Counted from the first letter of the stretch, positions 2,123-64,000 are shown. The stretch: DNA of 64,000 bases from Patescibacteria group bacterium (GCA_025057905.1 JANWUX010000001.1:20155-84154); one strand, 5' to 3'. Translations and numbers: made by a program. Notes: generated by a model not told the origin, from the sequence alone.

Positions 2123-2137
2123 TTCAAAATATAAGAA

Positions 2138-3229: not shown

Positions 3230-3231
3230 TT

Positions 3232-4626
3232 TTAGCCTGAAATTACTTTTTTTACCAGCCGGTGAAACATCTCACCTCGATGGAACTCATTGCAAAACAT
3301 CGAGAATGAAGTTGCCCCTGGCGAAAACAAAATGCAAAACTGATTTTGATTATTTACTGATAAACTTGTCTTTTCCTCACTTGCAATCTGAAGAGCCTCC
3401 TGAATAGCCAACTCAAGATCATCATAAACTTCACGGCTAATTTTTTCTGGCATATGAGCTCTTAACTTTGGCAGAATCTCCTCTGTAAAGCTCCCTTTAA
3501 GAAAGACAATTTTTTTTACTTTTTCTAAGTGTTTAAGTAAGTCATCAACAGGAAGATTTTTTGAGTTTCCCCCAAGAATGAGAATTATTTTTTTGTCTTT
3601 AAATCTTTCAATAGCCTTAATTGTTGCTGTTGGTGTTGTTGAGGTGGCGTCGTTAACAAAAATCATGCTTCCCTGCTTATGGATAATCTCTTGCCTGTAG
3701 GGTAAGCCCTTAATTTTGGAAATGATCTCAATCGCTTTGCTTCTCGGCAGTTCAAGAACTTCGGCTACCTTGAAAGCGGCAGCTGCATTTTCGAGATTGT
3801 GATCACCTTGGAGATTCTTGAGACGAAGCGGATAATCTTTTTTTGAAAACCAGAAAACACCCGTCTTCCTCTCAGTTATTAGTGGTTCTAAGGCCCTGTT
3901 AGCCACAAGAAACTCAGTTGTCTTTTGGTAAAGATAAATCGCTTTTTTGTCGAATAAATAATCTTCCATATTTTTGTAATAGTCAAGGTGATCGGGATAG
4001 AAGTTGGTAAAAACAGCTAGATTTGGACTAATTTTCCTTCGATGAAAACCAGAGAGAGCCCATGAAGAAAGCTCAGCAACCAACCATGTCTGACTATCGG
4101 CGGTTTTTAAGAACTCAATAGTAGAGACGCCGGGAAAACCACCACCCAAAAGGACCTTAAAGCCCATCTTTTTGAGAAGATTAAAGATAAGGTAGGTAGT
4201 GGTTGACTTGCCTCTTGTTCCAGTGACACCAATGATTTTTCCAGGGAAGTGTTCAGAAACGAAGGCCATCTCCATTTCAATAGGAACACCCCGTCTTTGA
4301 GCCTCGACAATTAACGAAAGACTCCATGGGACGCTCGGTCCCTTGAAAATAACATCACAATTTAGAAAATCTTCGAGGCGATGGCCGCCCAATGAGAATT
4401 TTATGTTTTTGTAATTAGCCAACAATCTTATCGACGTCTCCAGCTCCTTCTCAGTTTTTTTGTCGCTAACAACCACCTGAGAGCCAAGCTCAGCAAAAAA
4501 ACGAGCGATTCCAACTCCACCGCCTTGATTCCCCAACCCAACGACTAGAATCTTTTTTCGGGAGTATTTCTCTCTTAGACTCTCCAGGAGAGCCATATAA
4601 TTATTATAGTTACTTAATGAAAGCAA
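3232..4626 (-). CDS. murD: UDP-MurNAc-L-Ala:D-Glu ligase MurD
   Basis: Mur ligase with N-domain VVGLGNQGGGVGIARFF, P-loop GVTGTRGKSTT and DHLDYY. It sits between mraY and ftsW. An alternative ATG at 4596 would remove the overlap with mraY. Confidence 0.9.
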   Translation of the reverse strand: MLSLSNYNNYMALLESLREKYSRKKILVVGLGNQGGGVGIARFFAELGSQVVVSDKKTEKELETSIRLLANYKNIKFSLGGHRLEDFLNCDVIFKGPSVPWSLSLIVEAQRRGVPIEMEMAFVSEHFPGKIIGVTGTRGKSTTTYLIFNLLKKMGFKVLLGGGFPGVSTIEFLKTADSQTWLVAELSSWALSGFHRRKISPNLAVFTNFYPDHLDYYKNMEDYLFDKKAIYLYQKTTEFLVANRALEPLITERKTGVFWFSKKDYPLRLKNLQGDHNLENAAAAFKVAEVLELPRSKAIEIISKIKGLPYRQEIIHKQGSMIFVNDATSTTPTATIKAIERFKDKKIILILGGNSKNLPVDDLLKHLEKVKKIVFLKGSFTEEILPKLRAHMPEKISREVYDDLELAIQEALQIASEEKTSLSVNNQNQFCILFSPGATSFSMFCNEFHRGEMFHRLVKKVISG

Positions 4627-36064: not shown

Positions 36065-36967
36065 ATGAAGAAAAAAATCAGCCAAACTGACCTGTCAATA
36101 ATTATCGTTTCTTATAACACCAAGAAGCTTACCCAAGAGTGTCTGGTATCGGTTGATCGTTCCCTCCGCTGCTCAAAAATCAATTATGAACTCATTGTCG
36201 TTGATAATCATTCAACTGACGGCTCAGTAGAGATACTCAAAAAATATTTGTTAAAAAAAAGCAATACTAACCAGTTAATCTGTTTGCCAGAGAACTTAGG
36301 TTTTGGTCGGGCCAACAACTTGGCCGTCAAGAAAGCCAAAGGTCGCTATCTACTCTTTTTAAACTCAGACACAATCATTCTTGATCGAGCTATAGAAAAA
36401 ATGTTTGCTTTATACAAAGACAATGAGAACAAGATTAATTTTCTCGGACCAAAACTTCTCAACAACGATCTCTCCCCACAACCCTCAGCGGCTCACTTTT
36501 TTCGATTGCCAGTCGTCTTTGCCGCTCTCTTTCTTAAAGGTGATTATTGGGGACTGACACGATTTTCTCCATCGAAACTAGAAAAGGTTGACTGGGTATC
36601 CGGAGCCTGTCTATTGACCAAAAAAGAGTACTTTGAACAGCTTGGAGGTTTTGATGAGAAAATTTTTATGTATATGGAAGAGGTGGATCTTTTATATCGA
36701 GCAAGAAAACTAAGTTGGAATACCTACTTCTATCCTACCGCAAAGGTCATTCATCTTGGCTTTGCCTCCTCGGGCAAAAAAACCGTCCCGATTCTCCAGG
36801 TTTACCGAGGCCTGGTTTTTTTTTATCAGAAACACTATTCAAAGCTGTCCCTCTTCATTCTTCGACTCCTTTTAAGACTTAAAGCCATGATTGCTCTCGT
36901 TGTTGGTAAACTAAGAAAAGATGACTATCTTGTCAAAACTTATGAAAGAGCTTGGCAAATTGTTTAA
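36065..36967 (+). CDS. Family 2 glycosyltransferase
   Basis: Motifs are SIIIVSYNTKK, VVDNHSTDGS, FLNSDT and GGFDEKIFMYMEEVDL. Confidence 0.85.
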   Translation: MKKKISQTDLSIIIVSYNTKKLTQECLVSVDRSLRCSKINYELIVVDNHSTDGSVEILKKYLLKKSNTNQLICLPENLGFGRANNLAVKKAKGRYLLFLNSDTIILDRAIEKMFALYKDNENKINFLGPKLLNNDLSPQPSAAHFFRLPVVFAALFLKGDYWGLTRFSPSKLEKVDWVSGACLLTKKEYFEQLGGFDEKIFMYMEEVDLLYRARKLSWNTYFYPTAKVIHLGFASSGKKTVPILQVYRGLVFFYQKHYSKLSLFILRLLLRLKAMIALVVGKLRKDDYLVKTYERAWQIV

Positions 36968-38495
36968 AATCATTGACAACAATCTTCTTCGATGGTTGTT
37001 TATTGGTTTTATTTTTATTGTTCCCCTTTGGCCAAAGCTGCCTCTTCGGATGATCAACTACACTTATATTGCCATCAGAGCCGAAGATCTCTATCTCAGT
37101 CTTCTTGCGGCTGTTTTTCTGATCCAGGTAATTAGGCGAAGAGTCTCTCTAAACAGGCAGTTTTTGATTCTATTTCTTATTTTTTGGTTCTTTGTCTTTC
37201 TTTCTTTTGCTTGGAATACCTTTGTCACCAAGACAATTGAACATCTTCATCTTGGCCTGCTTCATTCTCTAAGACGCGTTGAGTACATGATCGTTTTTTT
37301 TATTGGTCTTTCTCTTATCAAAAACAAAAATGACTTCTTTCAGATGATGAGATACTTTTTTGTTGCCATCTTTCTAGTTTGTCTTTATGGCCTAGGCCAG
37401 AAATTCCTTAACTTCCCAGCTGTTCAAACAATGAATCCTGAATATGCCAAAGGCTATTTGCTTTATTTAACACCTGAAGCTCGGATCTCTTCCACCTTTG
37501 CTGGTCACTATGATCTAGCCTCCTATCTTGTTTTTTTTATCCCACTAGTTCTTAGCTTTTACCTTTTTAGAAATCAGCGTCGGTATCTGGCGCTTTTTTT
37601 TCTGTGTTTATTGATTCTTATCTACACTGTCTCCCGGATTTCCTTCATTGCTTATATTCTGACTGTTTTTTCATTTTTGATTCTTCTCAAGAAATTTCGG
37701 CTATCTTTAACTATCTTTGTTCTCACCGTCATTTTGATAACGGCTACTGGAGAGATGACTGAGAGATTTTTGAGAACTTTTCAGATCAGAACTATCTTGG
37801 TTGATGAAAAAACTGGTGCTGTCTATATTGGCCAAAAAATCACCACAAAAGAACTGCCCGCCGGGACATTTTACCTCAAGCTGGGTCAACAGGAGCAAAA
37901 GGCTTTAGCAAAGATAAAACAAGAAATAAAAAAAGTGCCAAACCGAAACAAGGAGGAATTTAACATTGAAACCTTTAAACAAGAGATCATCCAAAAAAAA
38001 ATTCAGGAAGCTGCTGCAACTGGAAAAATCACCGAAGAAAAAAAAGAGGTGTACATCGCCACTCTTTCGGCTAACATCAAGCCGGTTAATACCATAGTTT
38101 CCGACATCTCTTTTGCCACTCGTCTCCAGATCGAGTGGCCAAGAGCCATAAACGCCTTGATGAAAAATCCTTTTTTGGGCACTGGCCCCTCGTCTCTGAC
38201 TGAAGCCACCGACAATGACTATCTTCGTTGGCTGGGTGAGTTTGGTCTTTTGGGAACTTTAAGTTTTTTCCTGATTTTGTTCTTCATCTTAAAAGAAACA
38301 TTTCTATCTTTAAAAAACAAATTTCAAGACCAAAATCTTCTTCTAGCCGGCTTTGCCTTCGGTCTGGGTGCCCTTCTTGTCAATGCCACCTACATTGATG
38401 TTTTTGAGGCCTCCAAGGTTGCCTTCACTTTTTGGATGATAGCTGGCCTTTTAGTAGGTTTTAGAAAATTAGCTATAAAAAATGAAAGTCATTGA
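36921..38495 (+). CDS. O-antigen ligase/polymerase-like membrane protein (Wzy_C family) with a long charged insert
   Basis: 524-aa polytopic protein. The Wzy_C-like loop is ATRLQIEWPRAINALMKNPFLGTGPSSLTEATDNDYLRWLGEFGLLG. A Lys/Glu-rich insert of about 130 aa (residues about 285-410) precedes it. Confidence 0.6.
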   Translation: MTILSKLMKELGKLFKIIDNNLLRWLFIGFIFIVPLWPKLPLRMINYTYIAIRAEDLYLSLLAAVFLIQVIRRRVSLNRQFLILFLIFWFFVFLSFAWNTFVTKTIEHLHLGLLHSLRRVEYMIVFFIGLSLIKNKNDFFQMMRYFFVAIFLVCLYGLGQKFLNFPAVQTMNPEYAKGYLLYLTPEARISSTFAGHYDLASYLVFFIPLVLSFYLFRNQRRYLALFFLCLLILIYTVSRISFIAYILTVFSFLILLKKFRLSLTIFVLTVILITATGEMTERFLRTFQIRTILVDEKTGAVYIGQKITTKELPAGTFYLKLGQQEQKALAKIKQEIKKVPNRNKEEFNIETFKQEIIQKKIQEAAATGKITEEKKEVYIATLSANIKPVNTIVSDISFATRLQIEWPRAINALMKNPFLGTGPSSLTEATDNDYLRWLGEFGLLGTLSFFLILFFILKETFLSLKNKFQDQNLLLAGFAFGLGALLVNATYIDVFEASKVAFTFWMIAGLLVGFRKLAIKNESH

Positions 38496-39924
38496 CTATT
38501 TTCTGGTTAGTCTTATTATTTTCCTCGGTTTGCTCTTTCGTTTTTATAAAATTGATATTCCCTTAGCTGATTTTCATTCCTGGCGCCAGACCGATACCGC
38601 CGCTGTCGCCAAAATCTTCCTTCAAGAAGACTTCAATCTTCTTAAACCAAGATATTTTGATCTCTCGAGCATTCAATCAGGGAAAGAGAATCCCCAGGGA
38701 TGGCGGATGGTTGAATTTCCAGTCTACAACGCTATCTTTGCCTTTCTTCACAAGAATTTATCATTTATCTCGCTTGAGATTTGGGGAAGACTAACATCAA
38801 TTTTCTTCAGTCTTGTGATTATTTTTCTCGTTTATTATTTTTTGCTAAAGGAAAAGAATCGATGGGCTGCAGTTTTTGGAGCTCTTGTTTATGCCATTAT
38901 GCCCTTTTTTGTTTTCTATAGTCGGGTGATTCTTCCGGAAACAACCGCTCTTGGTTTTTCGGTACTGGCGATATTCTTTCTCTATCTTTTCAACCAGCGC
39001 CGAGCTAAAGGAATATTTTTAAATATTATTCTTTACTGCCTGTCAGCGATTTTTTTTAGCCTTGGATTGCTTGCCAAACCAACAACTATTTTTTTCATTT
39101 TTCCTCTTCTTTACCTCTTTTTTAAGCGAGAAGGATTAACTTTTCTTAGAAAATTATCTTTTTACTTCTATGTTCTTCTTTCCTTGACGCCATTTTTTCT
39201 TTGGCGACTACACATCAGGAATTTCCCAGAGGGCATTCCGGCTAGTGACTGGTTGATCGCCAGTGCCCACACCCCGGCAGGACTGGAATCAATCTTCTTT
39301 CGGCCAGCATTCTTCCGCTGGATTTTTTTGGAGCGAATCAACAACTTGATTCTTGGTGGCTACCTGAGTTTTTTCCTGATTTTGGGAATAATCAGCCGAG
39401 CAAAAAAGAAGTTTCTTCATTCATTTTTGGTTGCTTCCCTTGGTTATCTTTTCACTTTTCAGGGAGGTAATGTTCAGCACGACTATTACCAAACTTTAAT
39501 CTTGCCAACCCTGGCCATCTTCTGTGGCTTAGGAGTGGCTTTTATTCTTGAAAACAGAAAAGTTTTTAGTCCCTTTCTTGCTGGCTTGATGATTTTCTTT
39601 ATCATCTGCGCTTCTTGGGCTTTTTCTTTTTTTGAGGTCAGAAATCATTATCACTATTCAGTTTCACTAATTCAGCAAGCTAACTTAATTAAAACTCTTA
39701 CCGCGCCGGAGAGCAAGATTGTTGTTGATAGATTTGGCGACACCACTCTTTTATACCTCTCGGAACGAAAAGGAGCTCCAGCAATTTACAAAGATCCAGA
39801 AACCTTAAAAAAACTTGGCTATCAGTTCCTGGCGACTTCCAACAGACAGACAATTGAAGAACTAAAGAAAAAATACCCTGTGATTTTCGAAAATGAAAAT
39901 TTTTCTCTGTTTAAGCTTCAATGA
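38482..39924 (+). CDS. GT-C fold glycosyltransferase (ArnT/PMT_2-like)
   Basis: 480 aa with about 11-12 TM helices. The first loop, DFHSWRQTDTAAVAK, is typical of the ArnT/dolichyl-phosphate-mannose transferase family. Confidence 0.6.
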   Translation: MKVIDYFLVSLIIFLGLLFRFYKIDIPLADFHSWRQTDTAAVAKIFLQEDFNLLKPRYFDLSSIQSGKENPQGWRMVEFPVYNAIFAFLHKNLSFISLEIWGRLTSIFFSLVIIFLVYYFLLKEKNRWAAVFGALVYAIMPFFVFYSRVILPETTALGFSVLAIFFLYLFNQRRAKGIFLNIILYCLSAIFFSLGLLAKPTTIFFIFPLLYLFFKREGLTFLRKLSFYFYVLLSLTPFFLWRLHIRNFPEGIPASDWLIASAHTPAGLESIFFRPAFFRWIFLERINNLILGGYLSFFLILGIISRAKKKFLHSFLVASLGYLFTFQGGNVQHDYYQTLILPTLAIFCGLGVAFILENRKVFSPFLAGLMIFFIICASWAFSFFEVRNHYHYSVSLIQQANLIKTLTAPESKIVVDRFGDTTLLYLSERKGAPAIYKDPETLKKLGYQFLATSNRQTIEELKKKYPVIFENENFSLFKLQ

Positions 39925-50183: not shown

Positions 50184-50765
50184 CTAAGGTTTTTGATTAA
50201 CAATCTGATCTATCTTTTGCCTAACTTCCTCGATGAATCCGTCAACCAGGAGCTGTTTAGCTTTATTTAGACTCAAGCCACGAGTCATCAAGTAGAAAAT
50301 CTCTTCCTCATTTAAAAAACCAGTGGTTGAGCCGTGAGTGCAGAAAACATCATTGGCCAAGATCTCGAGATTGGGATTGGACTCAACCTTCGCTTGAGAA
50401 GAAAGAACCAAGTTTTGATTTTTCTGGTAAGCGTGAGACTTCTGAGCTTGTTTTTCGATCCGTATTAGACCATCATAGACAAACCGAGCCTGATCATAAA
50501 AAACTCCCTTAATGAGAAGATTTGATCGTGAATTGGGCGCCCGATGATGCTGGATAGTTTGAACCTGAAACACAGACTGATTTTTTCCCAAGTAAAGTCC
50601 ATAAATATTCACTTCAACTTCCGACGCTTTCAAATCAACCACGAGTCTACCAGAGAAGTTTTCAAACCAAACCACATAACTCTTCCCCTCCTTATCAAAG
50701 ACTAAATAATAATCCTGGTTTTTTTTCAGGTGAATAACTTCCGGTTCTTCTTTAGCAATAATCAT
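50184..50765 (-). CDS. sufD: Minimal SufD-like protein (SufB/D beta-helix core only)
   Basis: 193 aa with HHRAPNSRSNLLIKGV, NPNLEILANDVFCTHGSTTG and FYLMTRGL. This is less than half the usual SufD length. Confidence 0.7.
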   Translation of the reverse strand: MIIAKEEPEVIHLKKNQDYYLVFDKEGKSYVVWFENFSGRLVVDLKASEVEVNIYGLYLGKNQSVFQVQTIQHHRAPNSRSNLLIKGVFYDQARFVYDGLIRIEKQAQKSHAYQKNQNLVLSSQAKVESNPNLEILANDVFCTHGSTTGFLNEEEIFYLMTRGLSLNKAKQLLVDGFIEEVRQKIDQIVNQKP

Positions 50766-53358: not shown

Positions 53359-54429
53359 CTAGAGAAGCAGGCGTGGTTGACGATCGAGAGTTTGGGGATC
53401 AGCAATAAACTTCCCCTGAAGCGCTTTGTAGTAGCCAACAACTCCAATCATCGCCGCGTTGTCACCGGTAAGATAAGGATACGAAGGAAATAAAACATCG
53501 CCCTGATATTTCTTGGCCAAGCCTCGAAAGAGAGTCCGAAGGTAGCGGTTAGCCGAGACCCCACCAACCAAACAAAGATTTTTGATTCCGGTTTCTCTAA
53601 TTGCTCGCTCTGTTTTTTTGACAAGAGTCTCAAATACTGCCTGCTGGAAAGAAGAAGTCAGTTGGTAAAGGTCTGTCTTTTTTTCGATGATGAAGGTCGT
53701 TGAGAAGGAATACCTCTGCTTGAGGTAATAATAGAAGGATGTTTTTAAGCCAGAGAAGGAAAAGTCAAGCTGGTTAGTTTTTAGCATGGGTCTTGGGAAT
53801 CGGTGAAAATCTTGGTTGTTGACCTGTTTGGCAAGTCTCTCAATCACTGGTCCACCAGGATAGCCTAAACCAAGTAGCTTAGCTGCCTTATCCAAAGCCT
53901 CACCAGCGGCATCATCGACTGTCTCGCCAAGCATCTGATAGCTAAGATGATCATTAAAAACAACTAAGTTTGTATGTCCGCCAGACGCGACCAAGACCAG
54001 ATAAGGGAACCGAAACTCTCTTTCTGGTTTCCCGGTTCGGTTTTGGACAAAAGGTGAGTAAAGGTGCCCTTCGAGGTGATTTATGGCAATCAGTTTTTTT
54101 TCGTATTTGGCTGACAGTTCTTTTGCCTTTTTTATTCCCACTTCCAAAGCAACAGCCAGCCCTGGTCCCTGGGTGACGGCAACGAAGCCGATCTTTGCCA
54201 GACTAAAACCTGAGTCTTTGAGTCTAAGCTTTCTCACTGCCTCTTCAATGACAAAATCAATTTTCTCCTCGTGAGCTCTTTTTGCCAGAGACGGAACCAC
54301 CCCACCCCACTTTTTGTGAATCAAAGCTTGTGAATAAATAACATTTGAAAGAACTCGCCTGCCTTCAGTGATTGCCACGGCTGTCTCATCACAGGAAGTA
54401 TCAATTGCAAGGATTCTTATCATCGACAT
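53359..54429 (-). CDS. tsaD: tRNA N6-adenosine threonylcarbamoyltransferase TsaD
   Basis: Motifs are ILAIDTSCDETAVAI, INHLEGH, SGGHT and VGGVSAN. The start is at ATG 54429 or 54423. Confidence 0.9.
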   Translation of the reverse strand: MSMIRILAIDTSCDETAVAITEGRRVLSNVIYSQALIHKKWGGVVPSLAKRAHEEKIDFVIEEAVRKLRLKDSGFSLAKIGFVAVTQGPGLAVALEVGIKKAKELSAKYEKKLIAINHLEGHLYSPFVQNRTGKPEREFRFPYLVLVASGGHTNLVVFNDHLSYQMLGETVDDAAGEALDKAAKLLGLGYPGGPVIERLAKQVNNQDFHRFPRPMLKTNQLDFSFSGLKTSFYYYLKQRYSFSTTFIIEKKTDLYQLTSSFQQAVFETLVKKTERAIRETGIKNLCLVGGVSANRYLRTLFRGLAKKYQGDVLFPSYPYLTGDNAAMIGVVGYYKALQGKFIADPQTLDRQPRLLL

Positions 54430-55156
54430 CAGAATAAATTTTGACCTGACCAAGTCCCATACTGGTTTTCATTCCCAGACCAAAAAAACTTAGTGCCTCA
54501 ATATCAGCTGATCTGCTTTCAAGAGAGATTTTCATCCAACCATAAGCGCCGTAGTAGGTAGAAAAAGGTTTGAGATCAACTTTTCTTGTCTCAAGTTTCT
54601 TTTCCAGAATCTTGAACTCTGGAAGAAAATAGATAACCTGACCCCGGTAAATCTCTTTCTGATGGTCGTAAAAGGAGTTTTTAATCGTTTCTTCTGAGGG
54701 ATTTAGGTTGTATTGATTGTTTTTTCTAAAAACTAGCGGGGTGATTGTCTTGATTATTATATTTTTGGCGTTTACTTTTTGTCGATGAGTTTTTTCGTAA
54801 AAAAATCTTTGTTTTGCCAACGTGGGAGGCAAAGAGTTGTCTTGTCTGAGATAGATTTTTTTTATTAGAAAATCTTTTCTGATGGTGATTTTTTTTTCAT
54901 TAAGGAGTGCTGAAAGAAAAAGCGAGGAGACTTCCTCGTCAAGAAGATTAAAAGTAACAAAAACTCGCTCTTTGATAATAAAGGGCGGAACCAGAGTGAA
55001 CGGTTTTTTTACATTCTTTTGATGATATTTGGTGGCTTTGGTGGGGAAACTGGTCTCGATTGTTCTTAAAAAACAGCTGTAGGTCTCATAGCCAAGAAAC
55101 TCTTTTCTGACTAGATCGATATCGCCATCAAGTTCGAGAATGATTTTTCTGAGCAT
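54401..55156 (-). CDS. cas6: CRISPR repeat endoribonuclease Cas6
   Basis: 251-aa RAMP protein with the C-terminal glycine-rich loop FFGLGMKTSMGLGQV. It sits directly after cas2. Confidence 0.8.
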   Translation of the reverse strand: MLRKIILELDGDIDLVRKEFLGYETYSCFLRTIETSFPTKATKYHQKNVKKPFTLVPPFIIKERVFVTFNLLDEEVSSLFLSALLNEKKITIRKDFLIKKIYLRQDNSLPPTLAKQRFFYEKTHRQKVNAKNIIIKTITPLVFRKNNQYNLNPSEETIKNSFYDHQKEIYRGQVIYFLPEFKILEKKLETRKVDLKPFSTYYGAYGWMKISLESRSADIEALSFFGLGMKTSMGLGQVKIYSDVDDKNPCN

Positions 55157-55163
55157 CTTTGAA

Positions 55164-55457
55164 TTAAAGAATGTCGTAAGCTGTCAATTTTACCGCAGGC
55201 AGATGAAAAATCTTGTAAAAACAGTTTTCACAGAGTATTGATAAACCAAGTTTGTCCTCATTCTTTTTTATCTTTTTGAAGTAATCAACAATTCTATTCT
55301 TATCCTTATGATCTATGAAGATTAGGAAAACGCTTTTTTGAATTCTGTTACCAAACTTTCTGAGAAATCTTGCTAGCTTGTTTCTCCTAGCATCGTCTTC
55401 AATGTCGTAGAAACACAGGTATTTACTTTTCCTTTTCTTTAAGAGAATCTTTTTCAT
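55164..55457 (-). CDS. cas2: CRISPR adaptation protein Cas2
   Basis: 97 aa with YLCFYDIEDDARRNKLARFLRKFGNRIQKSVFL. Confidence 0.9.
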   Translation of the reverse strand: MKKILLKKRKSKYLCFYDIEDDARRNKLARFLRKFGNRIQKSVFLIFIDHKDKNRIVDYFKKIKKNEDKLGLSILCENCFYKIFHLPAVKLTAYDIL

Positions 55458-56394
55458 CTTGAATAAATTTTACAACTGAGTTTAAGAGCCTATCCATCTT
55501 TTGGATAAATTTCTGATTTTCGATGAACCTCTTTTGAAATTGATAGAAAAATAACCTGATTGCATTCTCTTTAATAAGAACTTTATTTTCTTTTCTTTCA
55601 AAATCATTCTCATTAATCATCTTTAGATTTATCAAATTTAAAACAAGTCGATCAACAAATGGGCGAAAGGGCTCAATTATATCTAAAGACAGATTTTCTC
55701 TTCGGTATTGATTCTGATGGAAGAAGCTAATGTAAGGATCGAGATTTTTGGCGACTATGAACCCTGTAGCCAAGTTCACAAGAAGAGTATATCCAAAGCT
55801 AAGCAGTGAGTTAATTTCATCTGTCGGTGGATAGTGAGATCTTTTTATAAACCTAAAAGCTGGATTTATTATTAACTGACTAAAAACTTCATAATACTCT
55901 TTTTGGACTATTCCCTCAAGACCACGCGCCTGACTGACGTCACTTAGAGAATCAATTTTTTCTATGTGGCAATCAACTCTGTTGACGAAATTCTCGTAGA
56001 GGTCAATCTTCTTTTGATTCTTAGCGCTAGTGTAGATAACCTCTCTTTGCGAGTTTATTTTATTCCTGAGGAGATTTTTCGATAACCTTAATCTCTTTTT
56101 CTCGTTTTTGAAAACTTCGTACTGGGAGTACTTAAGAAAAATGTTTTTTTGATCAATTGAGACAAGACTGCCGATATAATCTCCAAGCGCAGATAGAAAA
56201 ATAACTCTTATCTGATTTTTCAGGAAAAATTTTAGAGCTTGAGTGGTCAAAAAAATATTCCCGAAAACAAAAATGTTCTCAATCAGCAGGCTGGGGTAGT
56301 CTTTAACCAGACCTTGAGGTGTCTCAACATACACTCTTCCATCTTTTATTCCTACCTTGGAGCCCTGAGAAACTAAATAGAGATTCATTCTCAA
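55423..56394 (-). CDS. cas1: CRISPR integrase Cas1
   Basis: 323 aa with an N-terminal beta domain (LYLVSQGSKVGIKDGRVYVE), then SLLSFGYTLLVNL and DIIEPFRPFVDRLVL. There is no fused RT or Cas4 domain. Confidence 0.9.
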   Translation of the reverse strand: MRMNLYLVSQGSKVGIKDGRVYVETPQGLVKDYPSLLIENIFVFGNIFLTTQALKFFLKNQIRVIFLSALGDYIGSLVSIDQKNIFLKYSQYEVFKNEKKRLRLSKNLLRNKINSQREVIYTSAKNQKKIDLYENFVNRVDCHIEKIDSLSDVSQARGLEGIVQKEYYEVFSQLIINPAFRFIKRSHYPPTDEINSLLSFGYTLLVNLATGFIVAKNLDPYISFFHQNQYRRENLSLDIIEPFRPFVDRLVLNLINLKMINENDFERKENKVLIKENAIRLFFYQFQKRFIENQKFIQKMDRLLNSVVKFIQDEKDSLKEKEK

Positions 56395-56817
56395 GAAACA
56401 ATTTGCTAGCTAGGCAAAAAGGCCATCGTTAAATTGAGGTACCTTGATCAAAATTTACCGTTTTATATAAAAAAAATTTTCAGATCAAAAAAAGTCTCTT
56501 TTCGGTAGATCAAAACCTATTAATGGCACTTTTGTCAACGATAACTCAGAAAGACTCAAACTCTTAAGAAAGAAGTCTCCTGATTTCACTTTTGATGCTC
56601 TTTTGAAGAGATTTACAAATAAACATATCCTAAAAACCAGCAAACAAACCCAGATTTTCGGAGACATTACCTCCTTGTTCTTCTCTTTCTTAAATCATAT
56701 CAGAATAAAATCTTGTCCATCACAAATCTCCTTTTCAAATTTCCAAGAGAAAAAAAGATTTTTAATTCTCAACAAATTCCCTGAAAAAATCAGATGATAA
56801 AGCAATCATCCTAAAAA

Positions 56818-58350
56818 TTCTCAATCCCTTAATTGGTTTTTTAATCTTCATCCAACTTCAAAAATTGAGCTTGGAATTCCCAAGTCAAAATGGTCTCAAT
56901 CCCTTAATTGGTTTTTTAATCTTCTTCTAAAAATTAAAAATTTTTTAAAAAAAGAAAGGAGGTGAAAGTCTCAATCCCTTAATTGGTTTTTTAATCTTCA
57001 TCTTATCAAAAGCTATATACGAAAATAGGCTGGATGAAAGTCTCAATCCCTTAATTGGTTTTTTAATCTTCATCTTAAAAAAAATGGAAGCAAAAGAAAA
57101 AGTCATTCAAACTTTGTCTCAATCCCTTAATTGGTTTTTTAATCTTCATCTGTTAGACGAGAAAACTCCAAAAGAAAAGGTTAAAAGAAGGTCTCAATCC
57201 CTTAATTGGTTTTTTAATCTTCATCTATCAAAAAAGAGCGTTCCTCTTGTTTTTATTGGCAAAAATTGTCTCAATCCCTTAATTGGTTTTTTAATCTTCA
57301 TCTTATTCTCCAAGCTTAATAAAGAATATCCTATTGATAAGTCTCAATCCCTTAATTGGTTTTTTAATCTTCATCAAATTTTTTATTCTGCAAAAGAAGT
57401 TGCCGAGATTTTAAAAGTCTCAATCCCTTAATTGGTTTTTTAATCTTCATCTATAATTTTCATGTGTCAAGGTGTTTCGTTTTTATGATAAAAGTCTCAA
57501 TCCCTTAATTGGTTTTTTAATCTTCATCTTAAAAATTATGACGACGCAACTAAAATTAATCCAAAAGAATGTCTCAATCCCTTAATTGGTTTTTTAATCT
57601 TCATCTAAAAAACACTGATCTTGGTATCCCAAAATCAAAATGTCTCAATCCCTTAATTGGTTTTTTAATCTTCATCTAAAAAACAGTATATTCTTGATGA
57701 GTTAAAAAGAAGGTCTCAATCCCTTAATTGGTTTTTTAATCTTCATCTCTATAAAAAAATAGGAAAAATAAAAGGGTTGCTTAAAATTGGTCTCAATCCC
57801 TTAATTGGTTTTTTAATCTTCATCTAAAAAAGTTAAAATCAAAAGGCTTTGGCACGGATTTGCTTGTCTCAATCCCTTAATTGGTTTTTTAATCTTCATC
57901 AAAATAGTATTGATGCTTGGAATTTTCATTTAGTTAATAATTGTCTCAATCCCTTAATTGGTTTTTTAATCTTCATCTTAAAATTTTCTAAAATTGAGGA
58001 GGATTATTTTAAAAAGTCTCAATCCCTTAATTGGTTTTTTAATCTTCATCCTGTTTATTAAGGTTTAGAGTAAAACATCAACTATAAAAAAAGTCTCAAT
58101 CCCTTAATTGGTTTTTTAATCTTCATCCAGGTTAATCAAAAACTACCATTATCAAAAGCTATATACGAAAAGTCTCAATCCCTTAATTGGTTTTTTAATC
58201 TTCATCGTTTTTTTTATTAACAAAGATAAAGAGATGATAAAAGAGTCTCAATCCCTTAATTGGTTTTTTAATCTTCATCTGTAAAAAACCTTAGGATTTA
58301 CACATGTGTAAAATAGTCTCAATCCCTTAATTGGTTTTTTAATCTTCATC
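56818..58350 (-). CRISPR. CRISPR array: 21 repeats of 35 nt, 20 spacers of 36-44 nt; inferred transcription on the minus strand
   Basis: The plus-strand repeat is GTCTCAATCCCTTAATTGGTTTTTTAATCTTCATC. Repeats start at 56818, 56893, 56968, 57040, 57116, 57191, 57268, 57341, 57417, 57494, 57571, 57642, 57713, 57790, 57866, 57943, 58016, 58093, 58172, 58245 and 58316. R1 (G1T) and R2 (A33T) are the only variants. The reverse complement ends in ATTGAGAC. Confidence 0.97.
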
Positions 58351-58444
58351 TGTCTCTTACTTTAAAGCCTCAAAAAGAACCAAAAAAGTAAAACTCAGAT
58401 AACCTGGTCAATAACCAAAATTGTAAAGGTGCAAAAGAGTGAAT
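58351..58444 (-). promoter_or_regulatory. Putative CRISPR leader (94 nt between the csm6 stop and the first, perfect repeat)
   Basis: The call rests on position relative to the inferred array polarity. Only a weak promoter candidate is present (TTGACC at 58411-58406, with no good -10), so read-through from csm6 is possible. Confidence 0.4.
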
Positions 58445-59695
58445 TTATCCAAAAAAAGCCTCAAGACTCAAATTGTTTGGATACCAAAAGTAAAGATCTT
58501 TCTTGTAGCCGAAGTATCTCATTATTATCTCACTTCTTAGCTTCATCACCTCTTGGATATCTTCTTCCTGCGGAATGTAGTAGCCATGACCAAAAATGCT
58601 GTTATTTCTCTTGTGAATGAGACTGTTAATAATTTTTTCTTCGAAGTGAGAGAAGAAATTAATCTGATATTTCTTCAACAAATCAATCTTTCCGGAAATT
58701 GGCAGTGGCTTCTCTTCCGACTTGACAAAACAACGAAGCGTGATCCCGCCATCAAGAGCAACAAAAAAGTCCTTTTTTTTCAGTTTTTTTGTTTTTTTGA
58801 CAATGAGCCAGCTAAAAAGGTTATCCAGGAAATTTACGAACAACGGTAGCACTTCATTCTTTTGCTCTCTTAGGTTGTAGATTAAAGTTAAGTCATAAAA
58901 GTAAAAAACTTGAGTCGCCAGGCCTTCAAGAACATTCTCAACATTTACCTGAAGATCCTTTTTCTCTCCAGAGATCAGCTCAATGTGGTTATAGATTTGG
59001 TCTTTGTTTCTCTTTAAAAAATCATCACTGGTAATTTTCATTGTCATCATTGCATTTTTAACTGAGCTGCCAACACTCTCATTAAGTCCTCCTTTACAGA
59101 AATTTTCAAAGTAATCGAGAAATGATCTGATTTCACTTTTTAGATAATCAAAGAGAAGCTCTTTCACCTCGCCAAACTTAAACTGTCTTAATAGTTCCTG
59201 GGCCTTTTTTCGATACAAAGCAAGATAAATTGCCCGACTCTCTATTTCGATAATATCCTCCGGATGCATCACTATCCTGCCTTGGGTATTATCGCGTGTG
59301 CCTGATATATAAATCATTTTGTCAAATCGTTGAGACTCAATTGCCCAAAGAGCCAGGCTGGCCGAGATCGGTTTTGTTCCGTAGGTAAAGTCAACAATCA
59401 CTTTCCACTCTCCCTCAAGATCAATAATTTTCTGCCCCAGTTTCTTGTCTAACTCGTCGATAATTTTCCTCATATTCTCAACTTCCTCAAGAAAAATCTC
59501 CTCAATCTCAATCTCGCCGGGATACTCTCTGCTGACGATTTCTTTAATCGCTTGAAAATTGTTTTTTACCTTTGGGTTGCTAGTTGTTAAATAAATGGCT
59601 TTTTTGGGATTAAATGACTCTATGACAAACTTAAACGATTTTGGAATATTCTCATGAGCACCGACGGTTGAGATTAGCAAAGTTTTCTTAAGCAT
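58445..59695 (-). CDS. csm6: Csm6/Csx1-family CARF-HEPN ribonuclease
   Basis: 416 aa. The N-terminal CARF motifs are LLISTVG and DFTYGTKPISASL. The C-terminal HEPN motif is an R-x6-H, HKRNNSIFGHG. Confidence 0.8.
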   Translation of the reverse strand: MLKKTLLISTVGAHENIPKSFKFVIESFNPKKAIYLTTSNPKVKNNFQAIKEIVSREYPGEIEIEEIFLEEVENMRKIIDELDKKLGQKIIDLEGEWKVIVDFTYGTKPISASLALWAIESQRFDKMIYISGTRDNTQGRIVMHPEDIIEIESRAIYLALYRKKAQELLRQFKFGEVKELLFDYLKSEIRSFLDYFENFCKGGLNESVGSSVKNAMMTMKITSDDFLKRNKDQIYNHIELISGEKKDLQVNVENVLEGLATQVFYFYDLTLIYNLREQKNEVLPLFVNFLDNLFSWLIVKKTKKLKKKDFFVALDGGITLRCFVKSEEKPLPISGKIDLLKKYQINFFSHFEEKIINSLIHKRNNSIFGHGYYIPQEEDIQEVMKLRSEIIMRYFGYKKDLYFWYPNNLSLEAFFG

Positions 59696-60593
59696 ACTGA
59701 AAGTAGAAAGGGATAGTTACAGTGATCTGAACAAACTCTGGGCATCGGTAGCTGACCTGATTGATTACTTTTCCGATTATTTCCTTATTTTTTTTTGATC
59801 GAAAGACAGCTCCCTCTTCGACAAGAACGATTTTTCTTTTGAAGGGATTTTTCTGGGCGTAGATATCTCCTATTTTTGGGTGTTTAATCTTAAGATCAAA
59901 AAAGAGTGGTTCATAAGCCTCTTTTTCTTGAGGGTGAGGATTAAAGTGGGAGGTAGCGATAAAATGATCTCCTTGAGATGATAGCTTTCTGGTCGCTTGA
60001 ACATTGAGAATTTTAAGTTGGTTGTATCCAACCGATTTTTTCTTCCCTAAAAAAAACTCGACTCCTTCGTCAAGTGAACGAAATATTTCCTCCAGAATTG
60101 CCTGGTCATCTTCTCTAACTCTCAGATACAAGGACAGCCTGGTTTTTGGTGCCAGTCCCTCAACAAAAAAGAGAAGTTTCTGATCGATATTATTGTGAAA
60201 TCTAAGGATTGCCGACAAAAGATCATCTTTTTTTGTCAAGGCAAGAAAATCTGCCGGGGTTTTTGATGGCAAATTGCTGAAGAATTCTATTGGCAAATAA
60301 CGAATTTTTTTTAATTTCTTTCTTAGATCCTTGTTTATGCTTTGATTGTTTTTTTGGTCATTCTCGCCAAGTTTTTCGGTGAGAAAATTGGAATTAATTG
60401 GCAAATAATCACAGGGCAACAGACTCGAAAAAGCAAAAGGCGGGTTATCGTTCTTAAATTTCTCAAGAAGGTAAACAAATAACTCCTTATTTCTTAAAGA
60501 GAGAGAATATAAGATCCAGCCATTAAACGTGTCGGCCGAGAAAACTGAGGTTAACGGTGAAAGCGCCTTTAAAGTCACCTGATAATCTTTCAT
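59688..60593 (-). CDS. csm4: Csm4 (Cas5-family RAMP subunit)
   Basis: 301 aa with SADTFNGWILYSL (compare sDTLFSAL of Csm4/Cmr3), DYLPIN, KKLKKIRYLP and the glycine loop FLGKKKSVGYNQL. Confidence 0.65.
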   Translation of the reverse strand: MKDYQVTLKALSPLTSVFSADTFNGWILYSLSLRNKELFVYLLEKFKNDNPPFAFSSLLPCDYLPINSNFLTEKLGENDQKNNQSINKDLRKKLKKIRYLPIEFFSNLPSKTPADFLALTKKDDLLSAILRFHNNIDQKLLFFVEGLAPKTRLSLYLRVREDDQAILEEIFRSLDEGVEFFLGKKKSVGYNQLKILNVQATRKLSSQGDHFIATSHFNPHPQEKEAYEPLFFDLKIKHPKIGDIYAQKNPFKRKIVLVEEGAVFRSKKNKEIIGKVINQVSYRCPEFVQITVTIPFYFQYA

Positions 60594-61561
60594 TAGTTAA
60601 CAATCTCCAAACTGACAACCCCAAGAGGATCTCTAAAGTTATGACTGAAATAAGTTTTCGGATGTTTATGATCAACTATGATGGTTTTACCGTGCAAATC
60701 TCTTATTATTTGGTCTCTTTCAACCGAGAGTGACCCAAATCCAAGAAGCATGATTAAAGCCTTGCTTGTTTTGATCTTTTCAATGAGCTCTTGACTAAAA
60801 TTTTGCGAATAGGGACGATTGAATTTCCTCTTTTTTCGAAGAACAATCTTACCGCCTTCAAGAAAAAATTTCTCTAAAAATGACTCGATGTCGAAATTGT
60901 TAACTGAGGTATCGGTCTGAAAAAAAATCTCTCCCTCTGCTGTGCCATCAACTAACTGAACCATGATTGATGGCCCCTGTTTTCTTTGACCGTTGTTGAC
61001 TCCGATACGTTTAATTTTTTCGATCCAGGAACTCTTTTCTTTAAAGTAAAAATCTGAAAAACCTATCTTGGATCTTAATTCTTGAAGCTTCATTTTATCG
61101 CTTAGATTGAGATATCTTGACAACAGATCAAAAAAGGCGCCCTTGATCGATGAGCCGGGGATAAATACCTCCTTCTTGTTTGTTGTTATGTCCAGATAGT
61201 CCATAAATTTTTGTATATTAGCTGTTCTAAGACGATATTTTTCTTCTTCTTTTAACCTTAGATCAAGCCTGTTTCGGATTAAGTTTTCTTTCTCCAGATA
61301 CTTTGAATTACTTTGATAAAAAGATTGAATTTCCTGTATAAATGAATCATCACCCTTGCTGCGACCCTGACTATGAAAGAAGGTATCGATGATTCGAAAA
61401 AGTTCGGCTCTGAGGGATTTTCTTGAGAAAAGACCATCGAAATCTACCAAATATAGACTATCGTTGCTTATAAAAAATTCATAGTCGTAAAAGTAGTTGC
61501 CGGAGAAGATGTGAAGGGGTGTGAGAGTCCTCAATCTAAGAGCAAACTTCTTCTTCATCAT
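60593..61561 (-). CDS. csm5: Csm5-like (Cas7-family RAMP subunit)
   Basis: 322 aa with TLTPLHIFSG, YDYEFFISNDSLYLVDFDGL, FIPGSSIKGAFFDLL and LLGFGS. Confidence 0.6.
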   Translation of the reverse strand: MMKKKFALRLRTLTPLHIFSGNYFYDYEFFISNDSLYLVDFDGLFSRKSLRAELFRIIDTFFHSQGRSKGDDSFIQEIQSFYQSNSKYLEKENLIRNRLDLRLKEEEKYRLRTANIQKFMDYLDITTNKKEVFIPGSSIKGAFFDLLSRYLNLSDKMKLQELRSKIGFSDFYFKEKSSWIEKIKRIGVNNGQRKQGPSIMVQLVDGTAEGEIFFQTDTSVNNFDIESFLEKFFLEGGKIVLRKKRKFNRPYSQNFSQELIEKIKTSKALIMLLGFGSLSVERDQIIRDLHGKTIIVDHKHPKTYFSHNFRDPLGVVSLEIVN

Positions 61562-61575
61562 AAGGGTGGTAAATC

Positions 61576-62175
61576 TTAAATTTCTTCAATCTCAACTTTG
61601 CCATACCCCCTAGACCCTGAGCCACCTAGATAGTCAGACTCCAAAAGTTTCACTCCATCATTCCAAAGGTTGAAGTATTCATCCTTTTTTTTCAAATCCT
61701 CATCATCAAGAAATCTAAAAACCACCTCCAGAATAAACTCGTAGTTAACTGGAACCCTTTCAATAAACCTTGGATGAGTCTTGTCTTTACCAATTAAAAC
61801 TTCAGCTTTTTCTTCTGTGATTCTTTCACCGCTCTTTATTTTTTTAGAGAGCTTATCTCTCAATTTCTCATCCACGAAAGCATCCCTAACTAGGATAATA
61901 GTGGGCACTCTATTAATTTCGGCTGAGGCTGTTAAGTCCTCATTTTTTGAACCAAAGAGTTTATTTATAAGGTTCATTTTTTCAGGATAATTCTTTTCGA
62001 GCAAAAATTTAATCTTTCCTTTGATTGAAGATCCTGGAATATAGGGAATTCCCGTTTCGAACTCTTTAACTACGGGTTGATCCATTTCTCCAATCTCAAA
62101 AGAGTCTTTTTCAGCACCAATATGAAGTCCGGTTTTAACAACAATTCTGTATTTTTTGATATAGTACCTGTTCAT
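61576..62175 (-). CDS. csm3: Csm3 (Cas7 backbone subunit, RNA-cleaving)
   Basis: 199 aa with TGLHIGAEKD, IGEMDQPVV (the catalytic Asp position), PYIPGSSIKGKIKFLLEK and LGGSGSRGYGKV. Confidence 0.9.
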   Translation of the reverse strand: MNRYYIKKYRIVVKTGLHIGAEKDSFEIGEMDQPVVKEFETGIPYIPGSSIKGKIKFLLEKNYPEKMNLINKLFGSKNEDLTASAEINRVPTIILVRDAFVDEKLRDKLSKKIKSGERITEEKAEVLIGKDKTHPRFIERVPVNYEFILEVVFRFLDDEDLKKKDEYFNLWNDGVKLLESDYLGGSGSRGYGKVEIEEI

Positions 62176-62191
62176 GTCTTTATCTGCTTTA

Positions 62192-62644
62192 CTAGTAATT
62201 TATAATATAGATCTGATTTAACGCGTTTTTAAATGCAGTCATTATTTTTTTTAGGATTGTCAATTTTTCCGTCTCGTTCGTCTGAAGTTTAACAAGATAC
62301 TCACAATCCTTGATAAACATCTGCCCCAATTCATTAATCTTTTCTGAAAATCTAAAAAGTTCAGACCTTCTCTCCTTTTTTCTTTGGTATTCGAGCTTGA
62401 TGATAGCCATTTTTATCCGGTATTTTAACTCTTCTACAAACTCTTCACTATACTCTGAAGGCAGGTTTATCAAATGAATTCTGAATAAATCGGTGCATTT
62501 TCTCGATTGGTGGTGTTTTCCAATTATTTGTTTATTTTCTCGGTAATATTCTCTTACATCATCTAAAACTCTTTCGTCCTCAAGCCAGTTATTATTTATT
62601 TTTTTAATGAAAAAGAAACCCTCCTCATTCATAGCCCTTTTCAT
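62192..62644 (-). CDS. csm2: Csm2-like small subunit (Cas11)
   Basis: 150-aa, Lys/Glu-rich protein predicted to be all-helical. It sits between cas10 and csm3. The assignment rests on position and size only. Confidence 0.55.
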   Translation of the reverse strand: MKRAMNEEGFFFIKKINNNWLEDERVLDDVREYYRENKQIIGKHHQSRKCTDLFRIHLINLPSEYSEEFVEELKYRIKMAIIKLEYQRKKERRSELFRFSEKINELGQMFIKDCEYLVKLQTNETEKLTILKKIMTAFKNALNQIYIINY

Positions 62645-64000
62645 TGTTCTCTTCGGTACAGAAGAGCCAAATTTGTAACTGATTTTAGATTATCTCTCAA
62701 AAAAATAAAACTCTCCTCCTCAAATCTTTTTGAAAGAAAATCTTCGAAAAATTTATCAAAAAGATTAACAATTTCATTGTGACTCTCTTGATTTTTTGCC
62801 TCAATCGAACTTTTATGTTTATCAATCAATCTCAAGTTTCTCTTAAATAGATAAATCATCTTATAAAAACTGTTTGCCATATTGTAATTCATATTAGGAT
62901 TTCTGATATAGTCAGCTAACTTAAATATTTTATAAATAAAAGAACTGGAAATAGTCTCAGTTTTGCCGATAAGCTTTCCTAATTGATAAATCTTAAAAAA
63001 CACATCATAGGCCTCTGTTGAGAACAAAAAAGAAAACTTATTCTTACCCTGATTCTTTGCTTGCATCAATTTCTCCTCAACTTGGTCAACAATTAAATAA
63101 ACCGGGGTATCGGCTTTGGCAATTACCGCCCCTGAGGAAAAATGAAGGTACGGGTTTTTACAGACAAACTCATCAAACTCACCTTTCATCTCAAATAGAA
63201 AATTTAAAGCTTTGTCCCAAGCTCCCACCAAGAATAGATCATCGCCTCCTGAAAAAACAAGATAAAGAGATTCCTGATACTTCTTCTCTATCAGCAACGG
63301 CAAGTAGTTCTGGAAGAAAAGATTAATTCTTCGGGAGAAGTGAAGTTTGTCCGTAATCTTGGTGTATTTTCTATTTCTCTTGTCTTCAGTGAACTCTTTG
63401 GATTTTGCTTCCCTAAAAGAAAACCCTCTTTCAAGAATCGACGACATGTCATCAACATCAGCCTTTAAATACAAGAGAAGTTTGGCCCCAGATGACTTTT
63501 GAGCAATCTCTTCAAAAGAAAGATACCTTCCTTCTTGTTGAGGCTGATTTATCTTGTAGAAGATCGTCTTTGAGGGATAATTGAAGAAAAAAGGCTTTCC
63601 TTGAGTAAGTTGATCTCTCAGGTTTTCCAATGGTTTAAAGAAAAAATACCGATTACTTAGGCTACCGGATTCAGTTCTGCTAAAAAAAAGATTTAGATGA
63701 ACCTCATCAACGAAATTCTTAAAGTCGTCAATTAACTTCTCAGTGTCAAGTGAGAAATAATCTCCCCTTCTAATCTTTTGGGAAAGAGTGAGAATAAACA
63801 GACAGTCAGAGCAAACAGTTATCTCAAACTCGGGAATCACGTTTTTCTTACCGTAGACCTGGCAAATGTCGCACTGACCAAGTTCCTCAAGATTAATCTC
63901 CTTGGGAATCTGGTCATTGAGTTGGCTAATCTCAAAAAGAACCTGGCGATTTAGTGTTGGTCTTATTTTAAGCCTCTTGAAGTCGAAGAAATCGTCCTCA
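62641..64000 (-). CDS. cas10: Cas10/Csm1, C-terminal about 450 aa (gene continues beyond window end)
   Basis: The frame is open from 64000 (own translation: ...EELGQCDICQVYGKKNVIPEFEITVCSDC, a four-Cys Zn finger). The cyclase/Palm2 motif is VFSGGDDLFLVGAW. The track ORF start at 63840 is an internal GTG. Confidence 0.85.
   Translation of the reverse strand, partial: EDDFFDFKRLKIRPTLNRQVLFEISQLNDQIPKEINLEELGQCDICQVYGKKNVIPEFEITVCSDCLFILTLSQKIRRGDYFSLDTEKLIDDFKNFVDEVHLNLFFSRTESGSLSNRYFFFKPLENLRDQLTQGKPFFFNYPSKTIFYKINQPQQEGRYLSFEEIAQKSSGAKLLLYLKADVDDMSSILERGFSFREAKSKEFTEDKRNRKYTKITDKLHFSRRINLFFQNYLPLLIEKKYQESLYLVFSGGDDLFLVGAWDKALNFLFEMKGEFDEFVCKNPYLHFSSGAVIAKADTPVYLIVDQVEEKLMQAKNQGKNKFSFLFSTEAYDVFFKIYQLGKLIGKTETISSSFIYKIFKLADYIRNPNMNYNMANSFYKMIYLFKRNLRLIDKHKSSIEAKNQESHNEIVNLFDKFFEDFLSKRFEEESFIFLRDNLKSVTNLALLYRREQ

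Follow-up and report, generated by a model that had tools for sequence, protein, structure and literature searches.

Gene content of the locus

The high-coordinate end of a 64,000-nucleotide (nt) stretch of contig JANWUX010000001.1, deposited as 'Patescibacteria group bacterium' (the whole stretch is hereafter the window), carries a CRISPR (clustered regularly interspaced short palindromic repeats)–Cas cassette whose protein families place it in type III-A (Csm). Minus-strand genes form an unbroken run from the right edge of the window to position 54401, with a repeat array as the sole interruption, in the order cas10, small-subunit gene, csm3, csm5, csm4, CARF–HEPN gene, array, cas1, cas2 and cas6. 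An initial annotation had described just such a single minus-strand string, and every element of it was found. GC content is ~42% in the suf region and comes down to 30–36% across the CRISPR locus. The 5′ part of cas10 lies beyond position 64000 and was recovered from a 22-kb Logan contig (L001, run SRR15826901), retrieved by exact-protein look-up, which extends past the end of the window and is 100% identical to it over the aligned 2-kb overlap.

Effector proteins and subtype

We scanned the nine locus proteins against the NCBIfam, Pfam and PADLOC hidden Markov models (HMMs); eight could be typed, seven of them cleanly and Csm5 near threshold. The window holds the C-terminal 452 codons of cas10 (csm1; 62641–64000, minus strand, as are all features of the cassette), which continues for ~1.08 kb past the window end. 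This fragment already scores 206 bits with TIGR02578, the III-A Csm1 equivalog (cut-off 170), stays under the Cmr2 cut-off, and shows the zinc-finger cysteines and GGDD motif reported by the initial annotation, which had also suggested extending the contig to look for an HD domain. The extended contig yields the full protein of 811 amino acids (L001:7569–10004; 372.6 bits with the same model), in which an HD domain is present (FHDLGKF, residues 14–20) together with the four zinc-finger cysteines and SGGDD. When this Cas10 is aligned with the seven relatives closest to it, H15, D16, H34, H81 and D104, the cysteines C402/C405/C422/C425 and G610-G611-D612-D613 are all invariant.

Csm3, the Cas7 backbone and RNase subunit (61576–62175; 199 amino acids), reaches 159.9 bits with TIGR02582 (cut-off 90), and its Asp32, within the motif GEMDQPV, is presumably equivalent to the catalytic Asp32 of Staphylococcus epidermidis. 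Csm4, the Cas5 subunit (59688–60593; 301 amino acids), scores 70.3 bits with TIGR01903 (cut-off 55) and matches a PADLOC Csm4 model over its full length (E = 4.4e-35). Csm5 (60593–61561; 322 amino acids) is encoded ahead of csm4; six PADLOC Csm5 models match it, with a lowest E value of 6.4e-16, and orthologues occupy the equivalent position in two other contigs, L004 (Patescibacteria group bacterium KatS3mg092, BPJE01000001) and L085 (Logan SRR23854656_1289).

The gene next to the array encodes an ancillary RNase of 416 amino acids (58445–59695) with PADLOC matches to CARF_HEPN (E = 1.2e-24) and Csx1/Csm6 (E = 6.7e-19) and a weak match to the Pfam Csm6 HEPN domain. The CARF motif D-x-T-x-x-x-K belongs to the N-terminal domain of such proteins and the HEPN motif R-x(4-6)-H to the C-terminal one; here they read DFTYGTK and RNNSIFGH, and both are kept in the L004 orthologue. 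The protein has no match to the Csm6 equivalog TIGR02672 and none among PDB sequences. The CARF–HEPN part of the initial call as Csm6 is therefore sound and the Csm6 equivalog assignment is not: on its profile matches, 'CARF–HEPN protein of the Csm6/Csx1 superfamily' is a better description than 'Csm6'.

On the far side of the array, Cas1 (55423–56394) scores 233.5 bits with TIGR00287 (cut-off 71.7) and 267.9 bits with Pfam Cas_Cas1; its likely true start is an ATG at 56388, giving 321 amino acids, a gene call taken from an identical contig (L082). Cas2 (55164–55457; 97 amino acids) reaches 48.9 bits with TIGR01573 (cut-off 24.5), and Cas6 (54401–55156; 251 amino acids) 67.3 bits with TIGR01877 (cut-off 58.65), with the glycine-rich loop GLGMKTSMGLG. 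A cas1–cas2 fragment on a further Logan contig (L083, SRR25904939_337571) is 99.35% identical to window positions 55110–56343, with seven mismatches and one indel. A near-identical strain thus occurs in a second sample, run SRR25904939, in which the indel may disrupt cas1.

The locus could instead represent another type III subtype, III-D or III-B, that is Csm-like only superficially. Several of the matching PADLOC models are labelled as shared between III-A and III-D, the gene order departs from the canonical csm3-csm4-csm5, and Csm2 HMMs fail. However, the full Cas10, far above the Csm1 equivalog cut-off, stays at 41.2 bits with the Cmr2 model, under its cut-off of 79.4; the Csm3 and Csm4 equivalogs also exceed their cut-offs, the HD domain is present and the small subunit aligns with Csm2 profiles (below). 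In NCBIfam and PADLOC, every match of a Cmr (III-B) model to a locus protein is below cut-off and weaker than the Csm matches, and no III-D-only model is among the best matches; the matches of the PADLOC III-D-only Cas7 models to Csm3 are far weaker than those of the Csm3 models. We regard a different subtype as very improbable, and the III-A assignment of the initial annotation is supported by Cas10, Csm3 and Csm4.

A probable, divergent small subunit

Directly downstream of cas10, a gene at 62192–62644 encodes a protein of 150 amino acids in the place where csm2 is expected. Searched exhaustively with phmmer, a set of 1.84 billion representative proteins yielded only three relatives, and PDB sequences gave no meaningful match, whether queried with the single sequence or with a four-sequence profile. 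As a positional test, we collected the open reading frame (ORF) directly downstream of cas10 from 58 other III-A loci; 53 of these 58 are PF03750 Csm2. When a profile of seven small proteins of the CPR (candidate phyla radiation) clade described below was compared with this set using hhalign, the two aligned over 64 columns with 76% probability (E = 2.4e-5), pairing QvRK...YQxxR of the CPR clade with SQlR...AYaxGR of canonical Csm2. Position, predicted helicity and the profile–profile match indicate that the 150-residue protein is probably a highly divergent Csm2/Cas11.

Array, leader and spacers

The array (56818–58350) comprises exactly 21 repeats of 35 nt, the number first annotated, and 20 spacers of 36–44 nt. 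Its repeat unit is GATGAAGATTAAAAAACCAATTAAGGGATTGAGAC when read on the minus strand, the plus-strand form being GTCTCAATCCCTTAATTGGTTTTTTAATCTTCATC. Nineteen of the 21 copies are identical, and the two nearest cas1 have one substitution each. Because the two degenerate copies are those on the cas1 side, we place the putative leader at the opposite end, in the 94 nt between the CARF–HEPN stop codon and the first repeat (58351–58444). The 3′ 23 nt of the repeat (...AAAACCAATTAAGGGATTGAGAC) are shared with the repeat of the L004 array. Both repeats terminate in ATTGAGAC on the cas-gene strand, the expected source of an 8-nt CRISPR RNA (crRNA) handle; this ending argues that the array would be transcribed on the minus strand, where the repeat orientation puts the 3′ ...AUUGAGAC handle. 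The repeat is essentially unstructured when folded (z-score about −1), and no Rfam CRISPR repeat family matched the array at the gathering threshold.

Between the last repeat and cas1 lies an unusually long gap of 423 nt in which no degenerate repeats were found. The gap contains a 60-amino-acid ORF at 56485–56667 (minus strand), preceded by AAGGAGGT; judging by consecutive protein accessions, this ORF has no annotation in GenBank.

Spacers average 24% GC compared with ~39% for the host, with plus-strand frequencies of 0.45 for A and 0.30 for T. Spacers 3 and 18, at opposite ends of the array, share 23 nt, which is consistent with overlapping protospacers, offset by 21 nt, that were acquired at different times. 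Read in the crRNA sense, 17 of the 20 spacers contain more T than A (P = 0.003), and the L004 array shows the same tendency (26/36; P = 0.011). On the strand opposite to that of the crRNA, several spacers resemble a Shine–Dalgarno sequence with an ATG. Such pyrimidine-rich spacers would fit selection for crRNAs that are antisense to mRNAs, a requirement of type III interference; a bias in acquisition may be an alternative source of the pattern. About half of the spacers (56853–58315) end, in the crRNA sense, in a run of T followed by A or AA before the downstream repeat, and these endings may reflect a motif used in acquisition or trimming, or else a preference for the A-rich regions where translation starts. 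No spacer had a self-target in the window or in the other loci that we fetched.

Relatives and known systems

Except for one contig, the closest Cas10 homologues are all from CPR bacteria: a Microgenomates contig from Kamch4336 (L002; 49% identity), two Patescibacteria metagenome-assembled genomes (MAGs; 38% each) and a Roizmanbacteria MAG (L006; 32%). Beyond these, identity falls to ~25% in Desulfofundulus, WOR-3, Aquificota and others. The exception, a 1.7-kb contig with a Cas10 of the CPR clade (JBAMLT010000019.1, L005; 44% identity), is binned as Caldisericota, probably in error. The window, L004 and L085 all have the order csm3-csm5-csm4; csm3 is instead followed by csm4 in a Moraniibacteria locus and in two loci from outside CPR. 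By homology and gene order, the locus belongs to a small III-A clade, confined to CPR, that is characterized by csm3-csm5-csm4 and a very divergent small subunit.

Among these relatives, L004 has an identical architecture (cas10-csm2-csm3-csm5-csm4-CARF/HEPN-array-cas1-cas2-cas6), with proteins 29–58% identical to those of the window and a spacer strand bias of the same sign. It differs in lacking the tsaCE/tsaD flanks described below and in its array (L004:16498–19356), which has 39 repeats, among them six variants with two substitutions that form a block at the distal end; the spacer TAACCTCATTTAATGGTTTAATTATTGCCTCTTATAAA is present three times. L085 also has the same effector gene order over the part of the locus that its contig covers.

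In its components, the locus resembles the canonical III-A systems of S. epidermidis, Streptococcus thermophilus and Thermus thermophilus: a Cas10 with HD domain, zinc finger and GGDD, Csm3 and Csm4, a probable Csm2, a Csm5 close to its profile threshold, Cas6, a CARF–HEPN effector and Cas1–Cas2. An 8-nt handle of the AUUGA(A/G)AC type would likewise result from the 3′ end of its 35-nt repeat, alongside spacers of 36–44 nt. The differences are the order csm3-csm5-csm4 in place of csm3-csm4-csm5, a probable Csm2 that escapes PF03750 and all other profiles, a CARF–HEPN protein outside TIGR02672, a cas6 at the far end, after cas1-cas2, and a Cas10 only ~25% identical to non-CPR homologues.

CRISPR–Cas is reported to be largely lacking in CPR bacteria (PMC4742961). 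Type III-A was nevertheless described in all 11 clade-2 hot-spring Roizmanbacteria genomes by Chen et al. in 2019, some of the loci with Cas1–Cas2 and some degenerate (PMC6509639), and nine-gene type III operons (III-A and III-B) were reported from other CPR in 2023 (PMC10746230). The rarity argued by the initial annotation thus holds in so far as such systems are uncommon, whereas III-A in CPR was already published. The hot-spring Roizmanbacteria share with our locus a Microgenomates CPR host, the subtype and, in some genomes, the adaptation module, and one Roizmanbacteria Cas10 (L006) is among the closest relatives; judging by MAG names only, several of the relatives are likely to be of thermal-spring origin. 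They differ in that no system other than III-A was seen in our 64-kb window, neither CasY nor I-B being close by. The present MAG is not one of the genomes that Chen et al. published, and the passages of that paper on Roizmanbacteria III-A do not mention the tsaCE/tsaD insertion or the csm5-csm4 order.

Insertion between tsaC/tsaE and tsaD

The initial annotation had noted housekeeping genes on the low-coordinate side, and the flank beyond its window proved to be of the same kind: upstream of cas10, L001 carries a tsaC/tsaE fusion, ftsH, a 5′–3′ exonuclease gene, glmS and secA. The ~10.7 kb of cas genes and array therefore lie exactly between tsaC/tsaE and tsaD (53359–54423, minus strand), in a co-directional N6-threonylcarbamoyladenosine (t6A) gene cluster; tsaD marks the downstream boundary of the cassette, as synteny with the empty-site contigs below indicates, and is not part of the CRISPR system. 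The fit is tight at both ends. The start of cas10 is just 33 nt away from the stop of tsaC/tsaE (L001:7535–7569), and the last seven codons and stop of cas6 overlap the first 23 nt of tsaD (54401–54423). Neither target-site duplication nor direct repeats nor mobile-element genes were seen at the borders.

Homologues of the TsaC/TsaE fusion led us to four comparison contexts. Three have no CRISPR at the site: L084 (60% TsaCE identity), L086 (54%) and L087 (51%), the TsaCE of the last being listed at NCBI under Ca. Roizmanbacteria GW2011. In all three, ftsH, the 5′–3′ exonuclease gene and tsaC/tsaE are followed directly by tsaD; the L084 contig stops within tsaD, and L086 and L087 also have glmS, a 4-nt tsaCE/tsaD overlap and sufC-sufB-sufD-sufS downstream. 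The fourth, L085 (60% TsaCE identity), holds the cassette at the same site, with Cas proteins 41–72% identical to those of the window. By contrast, cas10 in L002 comes after sufC-sufB-sufD. Because the tsaCE–tsaD string matches that of the empty-site relatives, the cassette was either gained as a discrete unit at a conserved housekeeping junction or lost there from the other relatives, and it has been kept long enough to diverge about as much as the flanking genes.

In L085, cas10 (1768–4142) is split into ORFs of 370 and 352 amino acids, with a frame change near residue 378, and csm3 is called at 121 amino acids only; the copy is either decaying or misassembled.

Could the locus have been joined to a CPR genome by chimeric assembly or a binning error? 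Binning noise does exist, as the Caldisericota-binned L005 shows. However, CPR housekeeping genes lie on both sides, contiguous in the window and in an independent, 100% identical Logan assembly; the tsaCE–cas10 and cas6–tsaD junctions, with 23 nt shared between cas6 and tsaD at the latter, therefore argue against a chimera; the tsaCE–cas10 junction recurs in L085, a different organism; and the closest Cas10 relatives are themselves CPR. An artefact of this kind is, in our judgement, the least probable of the alternatives, and extremely so.

Host genome

Proteins identical to those of the locus are in GenBank as MCS7092882–MCS7092890, on a 351,509-nt contig of the 'Patescibacteria group bacterium' MAG. 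The NCBI Prokaryotic Genome Annotation Pipeline (PGAP) names Cas10/Csm1 (III-A), Csm3, a RAMP protein, Cas2 and Cas6; csm2, csm4 and the CARF–HEPN gene are 'hypothetical'. The best relatives of the window PNPase have 66–78% identity, and every named one is from Patescibacteria, Microgenomates or Roizmanbacteria. The window shares the synteny of tsaCE, ftsH and suf with the contig that has the Roizmanbacteria-named protein and with other CPR-like contigs. Together with the GenBank name, these results support a Microgenomates/Roizmanbacteria-like CPR host, in agreement with the CPR assignment first made.

The other genes of the window are of a housekeeping kind, including ftsK, lon, genes for penicillin-binding proteins, murJ, murA, murC, metG, trpS, sufS and a short sufD. 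SufD (50184–50765, minus strand) has 193 amino acids and covers only the C-terminal half of the SufD model; because L086 and L087 carry the same short form (188–197 amino acids), this length is a trait of the lineage rather than the result of truncation. SufB of L002 (545–3034) matches that of the window (75–81% identity) in two blocks ~1.08 kb apart, and the intervening segment, lacking in the window, may be an intein or another insertion. Two large adjoining ORFs of 524 and 480 amino acids (36921–39924, plus strand) have no NCBIfam match at E = 1e-5 and border a glycosyltransferase cluster and a FemAB-like gene.

Proposed function and activity

We consider it likely, with a probability of about 85%, that the locus is a complete type III-A (Csm) system encoded in the chromosome of this Microgenomates/Roizmanbacteria-like bacterium. 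From the protein families, we infer how it could work. Minus-strand transcription of the array would proceed from the putative 94-nt leader adjoining the CARF–HEPN gene, and Cas6 would cut the transcript 8 nt from the repeat 3′ end, leaving the 5′ handle AUUGAGAC. The crRNAs would then assemble with Cas10, Csm2, Csm3, Csm4 and Csm5. Binding of a complementary transcript would lead Csm3 (Asp32) to cut the RNA and would activate the Cas10 HD nuclease and GGDD cyclase, and cyclic oligoadenylate from the cyclase would switch on the CARF–HEPN RNase. Cas1–Cas2 would add new spacers at the leader end.

Several results weigh against a complete and active system. The 150-residue protein has no match among Pfam, NCBIfam or PADLOC HMMs, so that the initial csm2 call stands as to the gene and its place and lacks HMM support; its single-sequence AlphaFold model, although all-helical, is of low confidence (predicted local distance difference test score 51), and a Foldseek search of the model against the PDB returned generic helical bundles only. 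With the model of low confidence and the fold search uninformative, we call the protein a probable Csm2 because of the profile–profile match and its position. Csm5, as first annotated, agrees with its PADLOC models and misses the NCBIfam cut-off, TIGR01899 aligning with the N-terminal ~140 residues only (34.1 bits; cut-off 38.3), and the CARF–HEPN protein reaches just 31.8 bits with TIGR02710 (cut-off 83.9). Scanning the leader and array for promoters and terminators gave counts no better than in shuffled sequence. Host genes have almost no A-over-T skew on the sense strand, and the strand-bias argument consequently depends on the composition of the targets; the same near-zero skew rules out host-like composition as the source of the bias. 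Exact-match scans of IMG/VR returned nothing for the core shared by spacers 3 and 18, for the cores of spacers 14 and 9 or for the conserved 3′ half of the repeat, and scans of JGI metagenomes with a spacer core and with the repeat also returned nothing, which leaves activity to be judged from the locus itself.

These results bear on a further explanation, that the system is a relict with intact frames that has lost interference and adaptation and is carried along inside the co-directional housekeeping string. Such a relict would account for the lack of targets for any spacer tested in the IMG/VR and JGI scans and for a leader without a clear promoter, and it has parallels in the frameshifted cas10 at the same site in L085 and in the degenerate III-A loci known from some Roizmanbacteria (PMC6509639). 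Yet all nine frames are intact, the motifs that we checked in Cas10, Csm3, Cas6 and the CARF–HEPN protein are present, and the repeats have hardly diverged (19/21 identical). The overlap between spacers 3 and 18, which lie towards opposite array ends, indicates that spacers were acquired repeatedly, and the strand bias fits selection for function. We think a relict unlikely. An active system, as the initial annotation proposed, is plausible on the intact motifs, uniform repeats, overlapping spacers and strand bias; neither a target nor a transcript was found.

We also entertain, as a speculation that we rate as doubtful, although somewhat less so than a relict, that the locus represents a Microgenomates-restricted III-A lineage, kept vertically in the t6A cluster, with a profile-invisible Cas11 and with strand-biased, AT-rich arrays enriched in translation starts. 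If true, this would imply unusually strong selection for antisense crRNAs, or orientation-aware acquisition without a reverse transcriptase.

Significance

Given the III-A systems reported from Roizmanbacteria (PMC6509639) and the partial annotation in GenBank, the complete system that we favour is a further, well-preserved member of a known group, and it leaves the understanding of type III mechanism and of CRISPR distribution in CPR unchanged. What it adds to the cited passages and the GenBank record is modest: the tsaCE/tsaD site with its empty-site relatives, the gene order of the clade, a probable Csm2 that profiles do not see, and names for csm4 and the CARF–HEPN gene. Three genes that GenBank lists as 'hypothetical', csm2 among them, can now be named, and the III-A clade of CPR gains a clean, complete example with a defined insertion site at which occupied and empty relatives can be compared. 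Because CPR bacteria are mostly without CRISPR–Cas, each intact multi-subunit system helps to explain the phage resistance of these tiny symbionts.

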